A DNA stretch of 64,000 bases from the NCBI RefSeq assembly GCF_044647545.1, contig NZ_CP172818.1, one strand, 5' to 3'. Position 1 is the first letter of the stretch. The number at the start of each line of letters is the position of its first letter. A model generated the notes under the pieces. It did not search any database and was not told the DNA's origin. It saw only the letters and a list, made by a program, of their open reading frames with translations. Shown here in pieces: positions 40,913-62,578 of the stretch. Origin of the DNA: Escherichia coli (GTDB lineage: Bacteria > Pseudomonadota > Gammaproteobacteria > Enterobacterales > Enterobacteriaceae). A program made the translations under genes and the position numbers.

Positions 40913-43714
40913 ATGCAGAACAGCGCTTTGAAAGCCTGGTTGGACTCTTCTTACCTCTCTGGCGCAAACCAGAGCTGGATAGAACAGCTCTATGAAGACT
41001 TCTTAACCGATCCTGACTCGGTTGACGCTAACTGGCGTTCGACGTTCCAGCAGTTACCTGGTACGGGAGTCAAACCGGATCAATTCCACTCTCAAACGCG
41101 TGAATATTTCCGCCGCCTGGCGAAAGACGCTTCACGTTACTCTTCAACGATCTCCGACCCTGACACCAATGTGAAGCAGGTTAAAGTCCTGCAGCTCATT
41201 AACGCATACCGCTTCCGTGGTCACCAGCATGCGAATCTCGATCCGCTGGGACTGTGGCAGCAAGATAAAGTGGCCGATCTGGATCCGTCTTTCCACGATC
41301 TGACCGAAGCAGACTTCCAGGAGACCTTCAACGTCGGTTCATTTGCCAGCGGCAAAGAAACCATGAAACTCGGCGAGCTGCTGGAAGCCCTCAAGCAAAC
41401 CTACTGCGGCCCGATTGGTGCCGAGTATATGCACATCACCAGCACCGAAGAAAAACGCTGGATCCAACAGCGTATCGAGTCTGGTCGCGCGACTTTCAAT
41501 AGCGAAGAGAAAAAACGCTTCTTAAGCGAACTGACCGCCGCTGAAGGCCTTGAACGTTACCTCGGCGCAAAATTCCCTGGCGCAAAACGCTTCTCGCTGG
41601 AAGGCGGTGACGCGTTAATCCCGATGCTTAAAGAGATGATCCGCCACGCTGGCAACAGCGGCACCCGCGAAGTGGTTCTCGGGATGGCGCACCGTGGTCG
41701 TCTGAACGTGCTGGTGAACGTGCTGGGTAAAAAACCGCAAGACTTGTTCGACGAGTTTGCCGGTAAACATAAAGAACACCTCGGCACGGGCGACGTGAAA
41801 TACCACATGGGCTTCTCGTCTGACTTCCAGACCGATGGCGGCCTGGTGCACCTGGCGCTGGCGTTTAACCCGTCTCACCTTGAGATTGTCAGCCCGGTAG
41901 TTATCGGTTCTGTTCGTGCCCGTCTGGACAGACTCGATGAGCCGAGCAGCAACAAAGTGCTGCCAATCACCATCCACGGTGACGCCGCAGTGACCGGGCA
42001 GGGCGTGGTTCAGGAAACCCTGAACATGTCGAAAGCGCGTGGTTATGAAGTTGGCGGTACGGTACGTATCGTTATCAACAACCAGGTTGGCTTCACCACC
42101 TCTAACCCGCTGGATGCCCGTTCGACGCCGTACTGTACTGATATCGGTAAGATGGTTCAGGCACCGATTTTCCACGTTAATGCGGATGATCCGGAAGCCG
42201 TTGCCTTTGTTACCCGTCTGGCGCTCGATTTCCGTAACACCTTTAAACGTGATGTCTTCATCGACCTGGTATGCTACCGCCGTCACGGCCACAACGAAGC
42301 CGACGAGCCGAGCGCAACCCAGCCGCTGATGTATCAGAAAATCAAAAAACATCCGACGCCGCGCAAAATCTACGCTGACAAGCTGGAGCAGGAAAAAGTC
42401 GCGACGCTGGAAGATGCCACCGAGATGGTTAACCTGTACCGCGATGCGCTGGATGCTGGCGATTGCGTGGTAGCAGAGTGGCGTCCGATGAACATGCACT
42501 CCTTCACCTGGTCGCCGTACCTCAACCACGAATGGGACGAAGAGTACCCGAACAAAGTTGAGATGAAGCGCCTGCAGGAGTTGGCTAAACGCATCAGTAC
42601 GGTGCCGGAAGCCATTGAAATGCAGTCTCGCGTTGCCAAGATTTATGGCGACCGTCAGGCGATGGCAGCCGGTGAAAAACTGTTCGACTGGGGCGGCGCG
42701 GAAAACCTCGCTTACGCCACGCTGGTTGACGAAGGCATTCCGGTTCGCCTGTCGGGTGAAGACTCCGGTCGCGGTACCTTCTTCCACCGCCACGCGGTGA
42801 TCCACAACCAGTCTAACGGTTCAACTTACACGCCGCTGCAACATATCCATAACGGTCAGGGCGCGTTCCGTGTCTGGGATTCCGTACTGTCAGAAGAAGC
42901 CGTGCTGGCGTTTGAATACGGTTATGCCACCGCAGAACCGCGCACACTGACTATCTGGGAAGCACAGTTCGGTGACTTTGCCAACGGTGCTCAGGTGGTT
43001 ATCGACCAGTTCATCTCTTCTGGCGAGCAGAAATGGGGCCGGATGTGTGGCCTGGTGATGTTGTTGCCGCACGGTTACGAAGGGCAGGGGCCGGAGCACT
43101 CCTCCGCGCGTCTGGAACGTTATCTGCAACTTTGCGCTGAGCAAAACATGCAGGTGTGCGTACCGTCTACCCCGGCACAGGTTTACCACATGCTGCGTCG
43201 TCAGGCGCTGCGCGGGATGCGTCGTCCGCTGGTCGTGATGTCGCCGAAATCCCTGCTGCGTCATCCGCTGGCGGTTTCCAGCCTCGAAGAACTGGCGAAC
43301 GGCACCTTCCTGCCAGCCATCGGTGAAATCGACGAGCTTGATCCGAAGGGCGTGAAGCGCGTAGTGATGTGTTCTGGTAAGGTTTATTACGACCTGCTGG
43401 AACAACGTCGTAAGAACAATCAACACGATGTCGCCATTGTGCGTATCGAGCAACTCTACCCGTTCCCGCATAAAGCGATGCAGGAAGTGTTGCAGCAGTT
43501 TGCTCACGTCAAGGATTTTGTCTGGTGCCAGGAAGAGCCGCTCAATCAGGGCGCATGGTACTGCAGCCAGCATCATTTCCGTGAAGTGATTCCGTTTGGG
43601 GCTTCTCTGCGTTATGCAGGCCGCCCGGCCTCCGCCTCTCCGGCGGTAGGGTATATGTCCGTTCACCAGAAACAGCAACAAGATCTGGTTAATGACGCGC
43701 TGAACGTCGAATAA
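40913..43714 (+). CDS. sucA: 2-oxoglutarate dehydrogenase E1 component
   Basis: 933-aa [41 protein letters not shown]... Confidence 0.95.
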
Positions 43715-43728
43715 ATAAAGGATACACA

Positions 43729-44946
43729 ATGAGTAGCGTAGATATTCTGGTCCCTGACCTGCCTGAATCCGTAGCCGATGCCACCGTCGCAACCTGGCAT
43801 AAAAAACCCGGCGACGCAGTCGTACGTGATGAAGTGCTGGTAGAAATCGAAACTGACAAAGTGGTACTGGAAGTACCGGCATCAGCAGACGGCATTCTGG
43901 ATGCGGTTCTGGAAGATGAAGGTACAACGGTAACGTCTCGTCAGATCCTTGGTCGCCTGCGTGAAGGCAACAGCGCGGGTAAAGAAACCAGCGCCAAATC
44001 TGAAGAGAAAGCGTCCACTCCGGCGCAACGCCAGCAGGCGTCTCTGGAAGAGCAAAACAACGATGCGTTAAGCCCGGCGATCCGTCGCCTGCTGGCTGAA
44101 CATAACCTCGACGCCAGCGCCATTAAAGGCACCGGTGTGGGTGGTCGTCTGACCCGTGAAGATGTGGAAAAACATCTGGCGAAAGCCCCGGCGAAAGAGT
44201 CTGCTCCGGCAGCGGCTGCTCCGGCGGCGCAACCGGCCCTGGCTGCACGTAGCGAAAAACGTGTGCCGATGACTCGCCTGCGTAAGCGTGTGGCAGAGCG
44301 TCTGCTGGAAGCGAAAAACTCCACCGCCATGCTGACCACGTTCAACGAAGTCAACATGAAGCCGATTATGGATCTGCGTAAGCAGTACGGTGAAGCGTTT
44401 GAAAAACGCCACGGCATCCGTCTGGGCTTTATGTCCTTCTACGTGAAAGCGGTGGTTGAAGCCCTGAAACGTTACCCGGAAGTGAATGCTTCTATCGACG
44501 GCGATGACGTGGTTTACCACAACTATTTCGACGTCAGCATGGCGGTTTCTACGCCGCGCGGCCTGGTGACGCCGGTACTGCGTGATGTCGATACCCTCGG
44601 TATGGCAGACATTGAGAAGAAAATTAAAGAGCTGGCTGTTAAAGGCCGTGACGGCAAGCTGACGGTTGAAGATCTGACCGGTGGCAACTTCACCATCACC
44701 AACGGTGGTGTGTTCGGTTCCCTGATGTCTACGCCTATCATCAACCCGCCGCAGAGCGCAATTTTGGGTATGCACGCTATCAAAGATCGTCCGATGGCCG
44801 TGAATGGTCAGGTTGAGATCCTGCCGATGATGTACCTGGCGCTGTCCTACGATCACCGTCTGATCGATGGTCGCGAATCCGTGGGCTTCCTGGTAACGAT
44901 CAAAGAGTTGCTGGAAGATCCGACGCGTCTGCTGCTGGACGTGTAG
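43729..44946 (+). CDS. sucB: Dihydrolipoyllysine-residue succinyltransferase (E2)
   Basis: 405-aa ORF with lipoyl domain, Ala/Pro linker and catalytic domain. Confidence 0.95.
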
Positions 44947-45035
44947 TAGTTTAAGTTTCACCTGCACTGTAGACCGACGGGATGTGTCGGTCTACGGTTT
45001 AAAAGATAACGATTACTGAAGGATGGACAGAACAC

Positions 45036-46202
45036 ATGAACTTACATGAATATCAGGCAAAACAACTTTTTGCCCGCTATGGCTTACCAGCACCGGTGGG
45101 TTATGCCTGTACTACTCCGCGCGAAGCAGAAGAAGCCGCTTCAAAAATCGGTGCCGGTCCGTGGGTAGTGAAATGTCAGGTTCACGCTGGTGGCCGCGGT
45201 AAAGCGGGCGGTGTGAAAGTGGTAAACAGCAAAGAAGACATCCGTGCTTTTGCAGAAAACTGGCTGGGCAAGCGTCTGGTAACGTATCAAACAGATGCCA
45301 ATGGCCAACCGGTTAACCAGATTCTGGTTGAAGCAGCGACCGATATCGCTAAAGAGCTGTATCTCGGTGCCGTTGTAGACCGTAGTTCACGTCGCGTGGT
45401 CTTTATGGCCTCCACCGAAGGCGGCGTGGAAATCGAAAAAGTGGCGGAAGAAACTCCGCACCTGATCCACAAAGTTGCGCTTGATCCGCTGACTGGCCCG
45501 ATGCCGTATCAAGGACGCGAGCTGGCGTTCAAACTGGGTCTGGAAGGTAAACTGGTTCAGCAGTTCACCAAAATCTTCATGGGCCTGGCGACCATTTTCC
45601 TGGAGCGCGACCTGGCGCTGATCGAAATCAACCCGCTGGTCATCACCAAACAGGGCGATCTGATTTGCCTCGACGGCAAACTGGGCGCTGATGGCAACGC
45701 ACTGTTCCGCCAGCCTGATCTGCGCGAAATGCGTGACCAGTCGCAGGAAGATCCGCGTGAAGCACAGGCTGCACAGTGGGAACTGAACTACGTTGCGCTG
45801 GACGGTAACATCGGTTGTATGGTTAACGGCGCAGGCCTGGCGATGGGCACCATGGACATCGTTAAACTGCACGGCGGCGAACCAGCTAACTTCCTGGACG
45901 TTGGCGGCGGCGCAACCAAAGAGCGCGTAACCGAAGCGTTCAAAATCATCCTCTCTGACGACAAAGTGAAAGCCGTTCTGGTTAACATCTTCGGCGGTAT
46001 CGTTCGTTGCGACCTGATCGCTGACGGTATCATCGGCGCGGTAGCGGAAGTGGGTGTTAACGTACCGGTCGTGGTACGTCTGGAAGGTAACAACGCCGAA
46101 CTCGGCGCGAAGAAACTGGCTGACAGCGGCCTGAATATTATTGCAGCAAAAGGTCTGACGGATGCAGCTCAGCAGGTTGTTGCCGCAGTGGAGGGGAAAT
46201 AA
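45036..46202 (+). CDS. sucC: Succinyl-CoA synthetase beta subunit
   Basis: 388-aa [23 protein letters not shown]...; TAATG overlap with sucD. Confidence 0.95.
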
Positions 46203-47071
46203 TGTCCATTTTAATTGATAAAAACACCAAGGTTATCTGCCAGGGCTTTACCGGTAGCCAGGGGACTTTCCACTCAGAACAGGCTATTGCATACGGCACT
46301 AAAATGGTTGGCGGCGTAACCCCAGGTAAAGGCGGCACCACCCACCTCGGCCTGCCGGTGTTCAACACCGTGCGTGAAGCTGTTGCTGCTACTGGCGCTA
46401 CCGCTTCTGTTATCTACGTACCAGCACCGTTCTGCAAAGACTCCATTCTGGAAGCTATTGATGCAGGCATCAAACTGATTATCACCATCACTGAAGGCAT
46501 CCCGACGCTGGATATGCTGACCGTGAAGGTGAAACTGGATGAAGCGGGCGTTCGCATGATCGGCCCGAACTGCCCAGGCGTTATCACTCCGGGTGAATGC
46601 AAAATCGGTATCCAGCCTGGTCACATTCACAAACCGGGTAAAGTGGGTATCGTTTCCCGTTCCGGTACACTGACCTATGAAGCGGTTAAACAGACCACGG
46701 ATTACGGTTTCGGTCAGTCGACCTGTGTTGGTATCGGCGGCGACCCGATCCCTGGCTCTAACTTTATCGACATCCTCGAAATGTTCGAAAAAGATCCGCA
46801 GACCGAAGCGATCGTGATGATCGGTGAGATCGGCGGTAGCGCTGAAGAAGAAGCGGCTGCGTACATCAAAGAGCACGTTACCAAGCCTGTTGTGGGTTAC
46901 ATCGCTGGTGTGACTGCGCCGAAAGGCAAACGTATGGGCCACGCGGGTGCGATCATTGCCGGTGGGAAAGGGACTGCGGATGAGAAATTCGCTGCTCTGG
47001 AAGCCGCAGGCGTGAAAACCGTTCGCAGCCTGGCTGATATCGGTGAAGCACTGAAAACTGTTCTGAAATAA
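46202..47071 (+). CDS. sucD: Succinyl-CoA synthetase alpha subunit
   Basis: 289-aa [27 protein letters not shown]... Confidence 0.95.
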
Positions 47072-49999: not shown

Positions 50000-52633
50000 A
50001 TGAAAGCAGTATCTCGCGTTCACATCACCCCGCATATGCACTGGGATCGAGAGTGGTATTTCACCACCGAAGAGTCACGTATTCTGCTGGTCAATAATAT
50101 GGAAGAGATCCTGTGCCGACTGGAACAGGACAACGAATACAAATATTACGTACTCGACGGGCAAACGGCGATCCTCGAAGATTATTTCGCGGTGAAACCG
50201 GAAAACAAAGACCGTGTGAAGAAACAGGTAGAAGCCGGCAAGTTGATTATCGGCCCCTGGTATACCCAGACCGATACCACGATTGTTTCTGCGGAATCCA
50301 TCGTCCGTAATCTGATGTACGGAATGCGTGACTGCCTCGCGTTTGGCGAGCCGATGAAAATAGGTTATTTACCAGATTCCTTTGGCATGTCCGGGCAACT
50401 GCCGCATATCTACAATGGATTTGGCATTACCCGCACCATGTTCTGGCGCGGATGTTCGGAGCGCCACGGTACTGATAAAACCGAGTTTTTGTGGCAAAGC
50501 AGTGACGGTAGCGAAGTGACGGCGCAGGTGCTGCCGCTGGGCTACGCCATCGGTAAGTACTTACCTGCCGACGAAAACGGATTACGTAAACGCCTCGACA
50601 GTTATTTTGACGTGCTGGAAAAAGCGTCTGTAACCAAAGAGATTTTGCTGCCGAATGGGCATGACCAGATGCCATTGCAGCAAAATATCTTCGAAGTGAT
50701 GGATAAGCTACGTGAGATCTACCCTCAACGTAAGTTTGTGATGAGCCGCTTTGAAGAGGTATTTGAGAAGATCGAAGCGCAGCGAGATAATCTGGCAACC
50801 CTGAAAGGGGAATTTATTGATGGCAAATATATGCGCGTGCATCGCACCATCGGTTCTACGCGTATGGATATCAAAATTGCCCACGCGCGTATTGAAAATA
50901 AGATTGTTAATCTGCTGGAACCGCTGGCAACACTGGCCTGGACGTTGGGTTTTGAATACCACCACGGCTTGCTGGAGAAAATGTGGAAAGAGATCTTAAA
51001 AAATCATGCCCACGACAGTATCGGCTGCTGCTGTAGTGACAAAGTTCATCGCGAAATCGTCGCCCGCTTCGAACTGGCTGAAGACATGGCGGATAATCTG
51101 ATTCGTTTCTACATGCGCAAAATTGCCGACAACATGCCGCAGAGCGACGCCGACAAACTCGTCCTGTTTAACCTGATGCCCTGGCCGCGTGAAGAAGTTA
51201 TCAACACCACTGTGCGGCTGCGCGCCAGCCAGTTTAATTTGCGGGACGATCGCGGTCAGCCTGTACCGTATTTTATTCGCCATGCCCGTGAGATCGATCC
51301 AGGCCTAATCGATCGGCAAATAGTTCATTACGGTAATTACGATCCCTTTATGGAGTTTGATATACAGATCAACCAGATTGTCCCTTCTATGGGCTATCGC
51401 ACGCTTTATATCGAAGCGAATCAGCCTGGCAACGTAATTGCGGCAAAAAGTGACGCTGAAGGGATACTGGAAAATGCTTTCTGGCAAATTGCGCTCAATG
51501 AGGATGGTTCTCTGCAACTGGTAGATAAAGACAGCGGTGTGCGCTATGACCGGGTATTGCAAATTGAAGAAAGCTCTGATGATGGTGATGAATATGACTA
51601 TTCACCCGCAAAAGAAGAGTGGGTAATTACCGCAGCGAACGCGAAACCGCAATGCGATATTATTCATGAAGCCTGGCAGAGCAGGGCTGTTATCCGCTAT
51701 GACATGGCAGTGCCGCTCAATTTGTCAGAACGCAGCGCCCGGCAATCCACTGGCAGAGTAGGGGTGGTGTTGGTTGTCACTCTTAGTCATAACAGCAGGC
51801 GTATTGATGTGGATATCAATCTTGATAACCAGGCTGACGATCATCGCCTTCGTGTCCTGGTCCCTACACCTTTTAACACCGACAGTGTTCTGGCAGATAC
51901 GCAGTTTGGTTCGCTAACGCGCCCCGTGAACGACAGTGCAATGAACAACTGGCAGCAAGAAGGCTGGAAAGAAGCGCCGGTTCCGGTATGGAATATGCTC
52001 AACTATGTTGCCTTACAGGAAGGGCGTAACGGCATGGCTGTCTTTAGCGAAGGGTTACGTGAATTTGAAGTCATCGGTGAAGAGAAGAAAACCTTTGCCA
52101 TTACGTTGCTGCGTGGCGTGGGCTTACTGGGCAAAGAAGATCTGCTTTTAAGGCCTGGGCGGCCTTCGGGAATTAAAATGCCAGTCCCGGACTCACAACT
52201 ACGTGGTCTGCTTTCTTGTCGCCTAAGTTTATTGAGTTATACCGGTACGCCAACCGCCGCTGGTGTAGCTCAGCAGGCGCGAGCATGGCTGACTCCAGTA
52301 CAGTGTTACAACAAAATCCCATGGGATGTGATGAAGCTCAACAAAGCCGGATTCAACGTGCCGGAAAGTTATAGTTTGTTGAAAATGCCCCCAGTGGGAT
52401 GCCTGATAAGCGCACTTAAGAAAGCTGAAGACCGACAAGAAGTGATTTTACGGCTGTTTAATCCGGCTGAATCAGCAACCTGTGATGCGACTGTTGCTTT
52501 CAGTCGCGAGGTGATTTCTTGCTCAGAAACGATGATGGATGAACACATTACCACCGAGGAAAATCAAGGTTCAAATCTATCGGGGCCTTTTTTACCCGGC
52601 CAGTCACGGACGTTCAGTTACCGGCTTGCCTGA
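50000..52633 (+). CDS. mngB: Alpha-mannosidase (GH38)
   Basis: 877-aa [39 protein letters not shown]... Confidence 0.9.
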
Positions 52634-53482
52634 ATAGCAATCAAACCGAAGCCACATATGCGCGGCCAGATTGTTGACAAAGGGCGCTTTGTTCATGCCG
52701 GATACGGCATGAACGCTTTATTCGGTCTACAAAAGCAGGCAAATTCAATATATTGCAGAGATGATGTAGACACTGGCAAGCGTAGCGCATCAGGTAATTT
52801 TGCGTTTATCTTCACTCTCAAGCCACGTATATGTGGCTTTATTTTTAACAAAATAATAACCCTGGGTGAGTTAATTATAATATAATTATAAGTTAACTAA
52901 ATGTTAATATTGGCGGGGTGGATTTATGCCTTTATTAGTAATCCTGAAACTCTGCGTCGTATTAGCCAGTGACCAAAAAAAGAATTAAGGTCAACCGTGC
53001 TGTTTTTGCTTCGTCTCTTTTTATCTTTAATTGCCAACCGAAACTAATTTCAGCCTTATAACTCACACATTTTAAACATAAATGTCACTAAAGTTACCTT
53101 ATTGAAACATAATTAACATATTTGGTTGGTTTTGATATAAATCAATTTTTAATTCTTGAAAAAAATCTGCAAAACACGATAAATTGTCGTAGATCAAATT
53201 GGTGAGATCGTGACAATTTCGCTATAAATTGATCACTGTCGAAAAATGCAAATTTGCTCAATAAAAACCTGTTTATTGTAAGGATTTTGCGGCGTAATAT
53301 AATTACGGGATCAATTTGGTTTATTCATTAACATATTTGTAACTTTTTTATCATTGTCTTTTCCTCTTTTGATGAAATGGCAACGATAGAGGCGAGCAAA
53401 TAATTTTGTATTGGGGCATGCGTGTGACCCTTTCTAACGGGGTTCACTCTCGGAGTCTTCATGCGATGAGCAAGGAGTCATG
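52634..53482 (+). promoter_or_regulatory. cydAB upstream regulatory region
   Basis: About 850-bp AT-rich intergenic region before cydA, of the size expected for its multi-promoter control region; individual sites not resolved. Confidence 0.5.
52696..52730. repeat. Diverged REP-like palindromic element
   Basis: gccggatacggcatgaacgctttattcggtctac resembles the REP consensus GCCGGATGCGGCGTGAACGCCTTATCCGGCCTAC. Confidence 0.5.
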
Positions 53483-62414: not shown

Positions 62415-62578
62415 TGCATAACACACGACCAGAAGTCGCATTATTTCTGGTCGTGTCGTGCGAATCATAAGCAGTTGAGTGATCTACATCGAAATTTTTG
62501 TTGCGCTCAAGTCTGAAATCAGTAATATATGCCGCCGTTGCCACGGGATATCAAACAAACCGAAAGCAACGAAAAAGT

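Follow-up and report, generated by a model that had tools for sequence, protein, structure and literature searches.

What is a perfect palindrome doing between sucB and sucC, two cistrons that Escherichia coli carries on one long sdhCDAB-sucABCD transcript? A sequence-only reading of a 64,000-nt stretch of E. coli DNA (contig NZ_CP172818.1; hereafter the window) had marked a 10-bp stem in this spacer with no T-tract after it, and had suggested that it might be an RNA processing or stability element, or else an attenuator balancing the 2-oxoglutarate dehydrogenase and succinyl-CoA synthetase halves of the operon. Here we ask what the hairpin is, what it derives from and what it may do in the transcript.

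A perfect hairpin in the sucB-sucC spacer

We find a perfect 10-bp stem between the two genes, with the sequence and the coordinates first described. The junction contains the following features:

43729-44946, + strand: sucB coding sequence (odhB in RefSeq), with its stop codon TAG at 44944-44946
44948-44958, + strand: two AG↓UUU motifs 5' of the hairpin that fit RN↓WUU, reportedly the RNase E consensus (motif match only)
44959-44964, + strand: CACCTG, immediately 5' of the hairpin, the fixed left border of a variable slot
44966-44998, + strand: extended RNA stem-loop predicted by RNAfold, with 14 pairs including two G.U pairs, a 5-nt loop and a free energy of -22.5 kcal/mol
44969-44995, + strand: perfect palindrome, arms GTAGACCGAC and GTCGGTCTAC around the 7-nt spacer GGGATGT
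44996-45000, + strand: GG↓UUU at the hairpin's 3' foot, compatible with the RNase E consensus (motif match only)
44999-45035, + strand: conserved sucC leader TTAAAAGATAACGATTACTGAAGGATGGACAGAACAC, with the Shine-Dalgarno sequence GGATGGA at about 45021-45027, unpaired with the hairpin in the predicted fold
45036-46202, + strand: sucC coding sequence

The left arm, GTAGACCGAC, spans 44969-44978, the GGGATGT loop 44979-44985 and the right arm, GTCGGTCTAC, 44986-44995. The arms open with GTAG (44969-44972) and close with CTAC (44992-44995), which is the hallmark of REP sequences. The 27-mer occurs once in the window, and none of 100 shuffles produced it. As RNA, the predicted stem extends beyond the palindrome: on the + strand, RNAfold adds an A-U, a C-G and a U.G pair at the foot and a G.U pair at the top, whereas RNA from the - strand forms the 10-bp core only, at -17.5 kcal/mol. 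Relative to the other strand, the transcribed strand is predicted to gain 4 pairs and 5 kcal/mol of stability. The whole spacer has a predicted structure of about -26 kcal/mol in the window, and when the 89-nt spacer was compared with dinucleotide shuffles, it scored z = -3.15, with 1 of 200 shuffles folding as well, and z = -2.86 in a second run.

Perfect stems of at least 10 bp with a loop of 3-12 nt are found at 11 distinct loci in the window, whereas mononucleotide shuffles yield 0.63 on average and never more than 4. These hairpins are a non-random class, and the sucB-sucC hairpin belongs to it. Four other members, at 24975-25010, 28319-28350, 30213-30240 and 62424-62455, are unlike most in that they are not obviously flanked by A/T runs; the one at 24975, ATTTATGCAAT...ATTGCATAAAT, looks like a protein-binding palindrome.

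The stem runs into (GG)UUUAAAAG, where the only U stretch is a UUU that is followed by AAAAG, and the tail past the extended stem, TTAAAAGATA, has 2 T in its first 8 nt. A terminator scan did not call the hairpin, and the lack of a T-tract noted in the first reading is borne out. We rejected the hairpin as an intrinsic terminator because the 8 nt directly after the stem do not hold at least 5 U. Like such terminators, it is GC-rich and closes a cistron, but it differs in its UUU and AAAAG and stands at a site that must let transcription continue into sucCD. No promoter-like site was found near the hairpin in a promoter scan, and Rfam covariance models run over 43500-46500 at E <= 10 gave no match at it.

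With respect to its neighbors, the foot of the hairpin lies 19 nt past the sucB stop codon when the extended stem is counted and 22 nt when the perfect stem is, and the distance from the hairpin to the sucC ATG is 37 nt. A terminating ribosome is said to collide with a REP that lies within about 15 nt of the stop codon; as both distances exceed this limit, REP-mediated translation coupling would not be expected. Occlusion of the sucC Shine-Dalgarno sequence was ruled out as well, no pairing being predicted between the hairpin and the sucC leader. A second in-frame TAG (44947-44949) directly follows the sucB stop, and this double stop, TAG TAG (44944-44949), is kept in every Escherichia allele examined.

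The same site carries REP/BIME arrays in other strains

The window is E. coli-like, in that a 1-kb region is matched in 5,425 of 5,426 complete E. coli genomes at 95-99.6% identity. The spacer itself is far from uniform. Within Escherichia we find at least seven length alleles (89, 93, 181, 184, 261, 274 and 365 nt), which correspond to 0-3 BIME units. Ton-Hoang and colleagues cite 1997 work by Bachellier and colleagues for variable BIME copy number. Read from representative sequences, the alleles other than that of the window have the following structures:

93 nt (short allele): CTGTAGACCGAC-GTGGATAGGGT-GTCGGTCTACGG, a single hairpin
181 or 184 nt: one BIME unit
261 or 274 nt (274 nt in K-12): two BIME units
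365 nt: three BIME units

The short allele is present in 3,402 of the 5,426 complete E. coli genomes (62.7%), at one place in each and at a second place in three of them; about 2,020 genomes (~37%), K-12 included, have a long allele of 181-365 nt. Short and long alleles share the fixed ends CTGTAGACCG...TCGGTCTACGG, and the borders of the slot, ...CACCTGCACTGTAGACCG (left) and TCGGTCTACGGTTTAAAAGATAACG... (right), are identical in all alleles. Inside the slot, the long alleles are made up of canonical Y/Z REP units whose orientation alternates (for example GTAGACCGGATAAGGC...CCGGCA and GCCTGATGCGACGC...CTTATCAGGCCTAC). As the K-12 RefSeq record has no REP feature annotated at sucB-sucC, we turned to copy number to establish the REP identity of the long alleles: one of their canonical units occurs at 40 or more places per genome. 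A 261-nt BIME allele, with a predicted fold of -106.7 kcal/mol, is also found in the E. albertii type strain. This pattern agrees with the published observation that BIME copy number at a fixed locus varies between E. coli strains (Ton-Hoang 2012, PMC3333891).

In each arm of the hairpin, the outer 8 bp are identical to the REP arms at the outer edges of the long alleles, and the interior of the hairpin has no convincing match to Y, Z1 or Z2. Judged by sequence, the arms correspond to two outward-facing REP heads (GTAGACCG... and ...CGGTCTAC) that elsewhere bracket 1-3 BIME units, and two REP heads joined directly make a perfect palindrome. The hairpin is thus very probably the zero-copy allele of a REP/BIME-polymorphic sucB-sucC site in Escherichia. 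The sequence-only reading had the structure right and missed its REP/BIME identity.

Two deletions within the loop, of 1 nt and 3 nt, set the 89-nt allele of the window apart from the common short allele. This exact allele, with the loop GGGATGT, is absent from the 5,426 complete E. coli genomes, where the best match has 94.9% identity with 4 gap positions, and JGI metagenome contigs gave no match to it either. Over positions 33000-57000 of the window, the best identity to any of the 5,426 genomes is 98.7% over 24 kb, which places the lineage of the window outside that set; it may be Shigella or some lineage that has been little sampled. The window has no IS1 end, and its SucA protein is the common E. 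coli form.

A REP pair of the ordinary kind is found elsewhere in the window, at 52680-52800, downstream of an mngB-like ORF (50000-52633). There, a degenerate but genuine REP, TGCCGGATACGGCATGAACGCTTTATTCGGTCTAC, ends at 52730 and is followed by an inverted degenerate REP that starts with GTAGACACTGGCAAGCGTAGCGCATCAGG at 52766, the pair forming a small BIME. The first of the two ends in ...TTATTCGGTCTAC, the ...TTCGGTCTAC head variant, which is the same head variant as in the suc hairpin; the heads of this BIME are of the GTAGAC/GGTCTAC variant, again as in the suc hairpin.

The hairpin is REP-derived but not itself a REP

REPs are defined by GTAG at the foot of the hairpin and by an imperfect palindrome with a mismatch or bulge in the stem (PMC3333891). 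The hairpin has the GTAG/CTAC feet and the extragenic position, in the 89-nt sucB-sucC spacer, but lacks a stem mismatch, measures 27 nt rather than 30-50 nt and is single-copy. A REP from which the stem mismatch had been removed, to give a perfect palindrome, was neither bound nor cleaved by RAYT (Ton-Hoang 2012, PMC3333891). As the hairpin is perfect, it would likewise be inert to this REP-associated transposase. A scan of the window with REP consensus fragments gave no match at the sucB-sucC hairpin. Canonical REPs (Y, Z1 and Z2, the substrates of TnpA-REP) are, like it, palindromic and extragenic with GTAG/CTAC feet, and the true REP in the window, on the mngB side, shares its ...CGGTCTAC head variant; canonical REPs, however, occupy at least 40 places per genome and the hairpin one, and its interior resembles neither Y nor Z.

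The REP/BIME-2 array of K-12 (274 nt, with variants of 181, 184, 261 and 365 nt) has the same slot, borders, GTAG/CTAC heads and transcript context as the hairpin. The difference lies in the filling. Arrays of the K-12 type carry Y/Z units and linkers, whereas the window has neither and is left with the two heads around a 7-nt loop; accordingly large is the gap in predicted stability, about -107 kcal/mol for the 261-nt allele against about -26 kcal/mol for the whole spacer of the window. We rejected the hairpin as a BIME-2 array, as the window allele has zero units where allelic loci elsewhere have 1, 2 or 3, and as a dispersed repeat family, given its single copy in the window and the one place per genome in the 3,402 genomes above, three with a second.

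When metagenomes were scanned for the arm pattern, 9 of 120 matches were E. coli suc loci, with three known loop variants, and the other 111 were unrelated hairpins. Contig Ga0099364_10331887 carries two hairpins with GTAGACCG.../...CGGTCTAC arms (214-244 and 398-427), 184 nt apart and each followed by a T-run, which look like an unrelated repeated terminator-like element. Collectively, these comparisons identify the hairpin as a REP-derived intercistronic stem-loop rather than a mobile REP.

A hairpin without a U-tract recurs at the junction

The loop GTGGATAGGGT is found in 2,560 of the 3,402 short alleles, a T>G change in the loop in 560, and a G>A change in the loop, which adds an A-U pair, in 201. 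Two changes are found in 6-7 of the 3,402; the one of these that was read (L008) combines a loop change with an A>G change in the stem that turns an A-U into a G.U pair. The natural variants that were identified thus fall in the loop, and the sole sampled stem variant, L008, stays paired. No stem-breaking variant is present among the identified short alleles, a reading that does not extend to 74 single-difference variants of the 3,402, some of which could disrupt the stem. Moreover, with so little diversity in E. coli, stem invariance is weak evidence here. Neither the extra pairs nor the G.U-tolerant variant work on the opposite strand; both require the transcribed one.

The slot can be followed outside Escherichia. 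CACCTG is conserved in Escherichia, Citrobacter, Pluralibacter, Pseudocitrobacter and Enterobacter, and across these five genera the slot is bracketed by (AT)CACCTG upstream and by GATAACGATTAC(C)TGAAGGATGGAYAGAAC downstream (45005-45035), the latter holding the sucC Shine-Dalgarno sequence. In Citrobacter sp. FP75, identical borders enclose another single short GTAG...CTAC hairpin, one that differs from that of E. coli. The positional homologue in Enterobacter sp. BIGb0383 is CTTCAGACCGGATG-ACTCTG-CATCCTGTCTGAAG, in which TCAG/CTGA replaces GTAG/CTAC: a G-C and a U-A pair become a U-A and a C-G pair, two compensatory changes that erase the GTAG hallmark and keep the helix.

We then compared gammaproteobacteria in which sucC is the next gene after sucB, across a spacer of 40-230 nt: 54 other species, or 55 with the window. 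The spacer folds with z < -2 in 41 of the 54 (76%), with a median of -3.1. A stable junction hairpin without a U-tract is predicted in 51 of the 55, each with an unrelated sequence; taking the best single hairpin of each spacer, the median is -18 kcal/mol. In 4 of 55, the 8 nt that follow the junction hairpin include 5 or more T. Median distances from the strongest hairpin at the junction are 13 nt back to the sucB stop and 58 nt on to the sucC ATG. Many of these hairpins seem to resemble the REP families of the lineages in which they occur. About 20 more distant species (Pseudomonas, Halieaceae/Halioglobus, Marinobacterium, Endozoicomonas and others) have about 1.5-1.8 kb between sucB and sucC; a gap of this size fits an inserted lpdA-type gene, so the direct sucB-sucC junction is not universal.

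A proposed role in mRNA stability

What could such a hairpin do? We lean towards a model in which the zero-copy allele of the BIME site acts as a REP-type stabiliser in the sdhCDAB-sucABCD mRNA. By analogy with REPs, its effect would most likely be modest, a punctuation of RNA stability between the two enzyme halves. The palindrome would fold as a 14-bp stem-loop (-22.5 kcal/mol) in the long transcript. After an endonucleolytic cut, perhaps by RNase E in the AU-rich spacer, or after some other formation of a 3' end downstream, the stem-loop would stop 3'-to-5' exonucleases (PNPase, RNase II). The upstream sucAB segment would thereby be protected and a stable 3' end or decay boundary set, and levels of sucAB and sucCD mRNA could then differ. 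The sucC ribosome-binding site would be left free by the hairpin, which would not be an efficient intrinsic terminator and would cause weak pausing or attenuation at most.

Several published observations are in line with this model. PMC5371410 and PMC6393394 describe sdhCDAB-sucABCD as co-transcribed and heavily processed, citing Cunningham & Guest 1998, and name RNase E and RNase III as processing enzymes, with RNase III acting in the sdhB-sucA spacer. With co-transcription taken from the literature, the hairpin is what a REP-type 3' stabiliser is expected to be, a stable stem-loop co-transcribed downstream of a cistron. REPs between tandem genes go with a higher ratio of upstream to downstream expression, and their stabilising effects depend on context and are sometimes absent (Harris et al. 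2026, bioRxiv 10.64898/2026.03.23.713779). In the same preprint, REP325 stabilises the upstream mRNA and also partly terminates transcription, attenuating the downstream yjdN. By Term-seq, stable 3' ends that do not arise by termination were found at a BIME in MG1655, in a gene that the text leaves unnamed (Choe et al. 2022, PMC9023263). One end in that study, T3PE-226, is said to fall at a BIME that serves to stabilise RNA, and since its index comes shortly after that of leuW (T3PE-211), it could fall in the 0.7-0.8 Mb region of sucB-sucC. A literature search for sucB together with Term-seq found no paper.

The hairpin resembles known REP stabilisers (the malE-malF paradigm, and REP325 in yjdMN) in being intercistronic, stable, free of a U-tract and placed after a highly expressed cistron, and by analogy it would be expected to protect the upstream mRNA and bias the ratio towards the upstream genes. 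It differs from them in that they consist of one or more imperfect REPs of 35-40 nt, whereas the hairpin is single, short, perfect and single-copy. The near-universal junction hairpin without a U-tract and the compensatory changes in BIGb0383 favor a structural RNA role. The stability or processing role put forward in the sequence-only reading is plausible on this analogy, as it fits both the documented roles of REPs and BIMEs between co-transcribed genes and the junction hairpins of other species. Against a stabiliser, ~37% of E. coli carry a very different structure at the junction, which means that the function of the hairpin is either dispensable or also supplied by the BIMEs. Recurrence of hairpins across taxa could also reflect a preference of REP-like elements for insertion into a permissive spacer, with no selection for function behind it.

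Alternatives to a stabiliser

The palindrome may instead be a neutral relic, left when a BIME contracted to zero units or dating from before expansion, with no selected role as RNA. We consider this possible but doubtful. A perfect DNA palindrome is what two inverted REP heads are expected to leave, and RAYT, which requires a stem mismatch (Ton-Hoang 2012), would not act on it. The number of BIME units at this hypervariable locus ranges from 0 to 3, the loop tolerates indels and SNPs, and the loop variant of the window is absent from the 5,426 genomes and the metagenome scan. A relic would not account so readily for a stable hairpin without a U-tract at the junction of 51 of 55 species with unrelated sequences, nor for the compensatory changes in the BIGb0383 homologue. 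Extra G.U pairs that form on the transcribed strand only, and a sole sampled stem variant that is still paired, also speak against it.

If the hairpin were a partial terminator or attenuator, RNA polymerase would pause at it and release some transcripts, intrinsically or through Rho/NusG, and sucCD would be lowered relative to sucAB. A stable GC-rich stem followed by UUU is compatible with this. Some REPs are partial Rho-dependent terminators, and REP325 attenuates yjdN (Harris et al. 2026); internal partial terminators have been reported in the operon (Conway 2014, PMC4161252), the one described appearing to lie at sdhB-sucA. Yet fragments of REP325 with 2-4 hairpins showed no Rho dependence (Harris et al. 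2026), and the sucC translation start 37 nt downstream leaves little untranslated RNA on which Rho could load. The absence of a U-tract and of a call in the terminator scan, together with the rarity of T-runs after junction hairpins (4 of 55), weighs further against termination, and we regard this explanation as unlikely. For want of a U-tract, neither a classical attenuator nor an intrinsic terminator finds support here.

Protection of a 5' end is less likely again. Here RNase E would cut at the AG↓UUU motifs (44949/44955), and the hairpin, now 5'-terminal, would shield the processed sucCD mRNA against attack by RNase E that depends on the 5' end, in the manner of the 5' hairpin of ompA. Two motifs of the RN↓WUU type do lie between the sucB stop and the hairpin, the sucC ATG follows 37 nt after the hairpin, with no predicted pairing between the hairpin and the Shine-Dalgarno sequence, and the operon is processed by RNase E and RNase III in the literature accounts cited above. 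These RNase E sites are, however, motif matches only, and a similar motif is present at the 3' foot. In other species, moreover, the strongest hairpin is much nearer to the sucB stop (median 13 nt) than to the ATG (median 58 nt), a position that better fits a 3' element of sucB.

Typical RNase III substrates have about 20 bp or more of near-continuous duplex, and the hairpin, with 14 pairs including two G.U, falls below this and was rejected as a substrate, even though RNase III acts in the sdhB-sucA spacer of the operon according to the same accounts. A role at the level of DNA, as the operator of a dimeric protein or a gyrase or IHF site, is, like that of an RNase III target, highly improbable: the inverted repeat has a suitable form, with its 7-bp spacer, and BIMEs are described as binding gyrase, IHF and Pol I (PMC3333891), but in 37% of strains the half-sites lie ~110-295 bp further apart, which would destroy an operator, no promoter-like site is nearby, and the short allele is without the BIME linkers that carry the IHF and gyrase sites.

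Discussion

In an annotation, the element between sucB and sucC can be entered as an intercistronic stem-loop of REP origin, allelic to the sucB-sucC BIME of K-12 with zero copies; it is not a new regulator. As for the stabiliser that we lean towards, a broader form of the proposal can be offered tentatively: stem-loops without a U-tract at this junction may be a deeply conserved gammaproteobacterial punctuation that is refilled in each lineage by its own REP-like elements, with the 0-, 1-, 2- and 3-BIME alleles of E. coli dialing the SucAB:SucCD ratio. If it is true that the alleles differ in their protection of sucAB or attenuation of sucCD, then this common polymorphism (~63% against 37%) would be a case in which turnover of a non-coding repeat tunes the stoichiometry of TCA-cycle enzymes.
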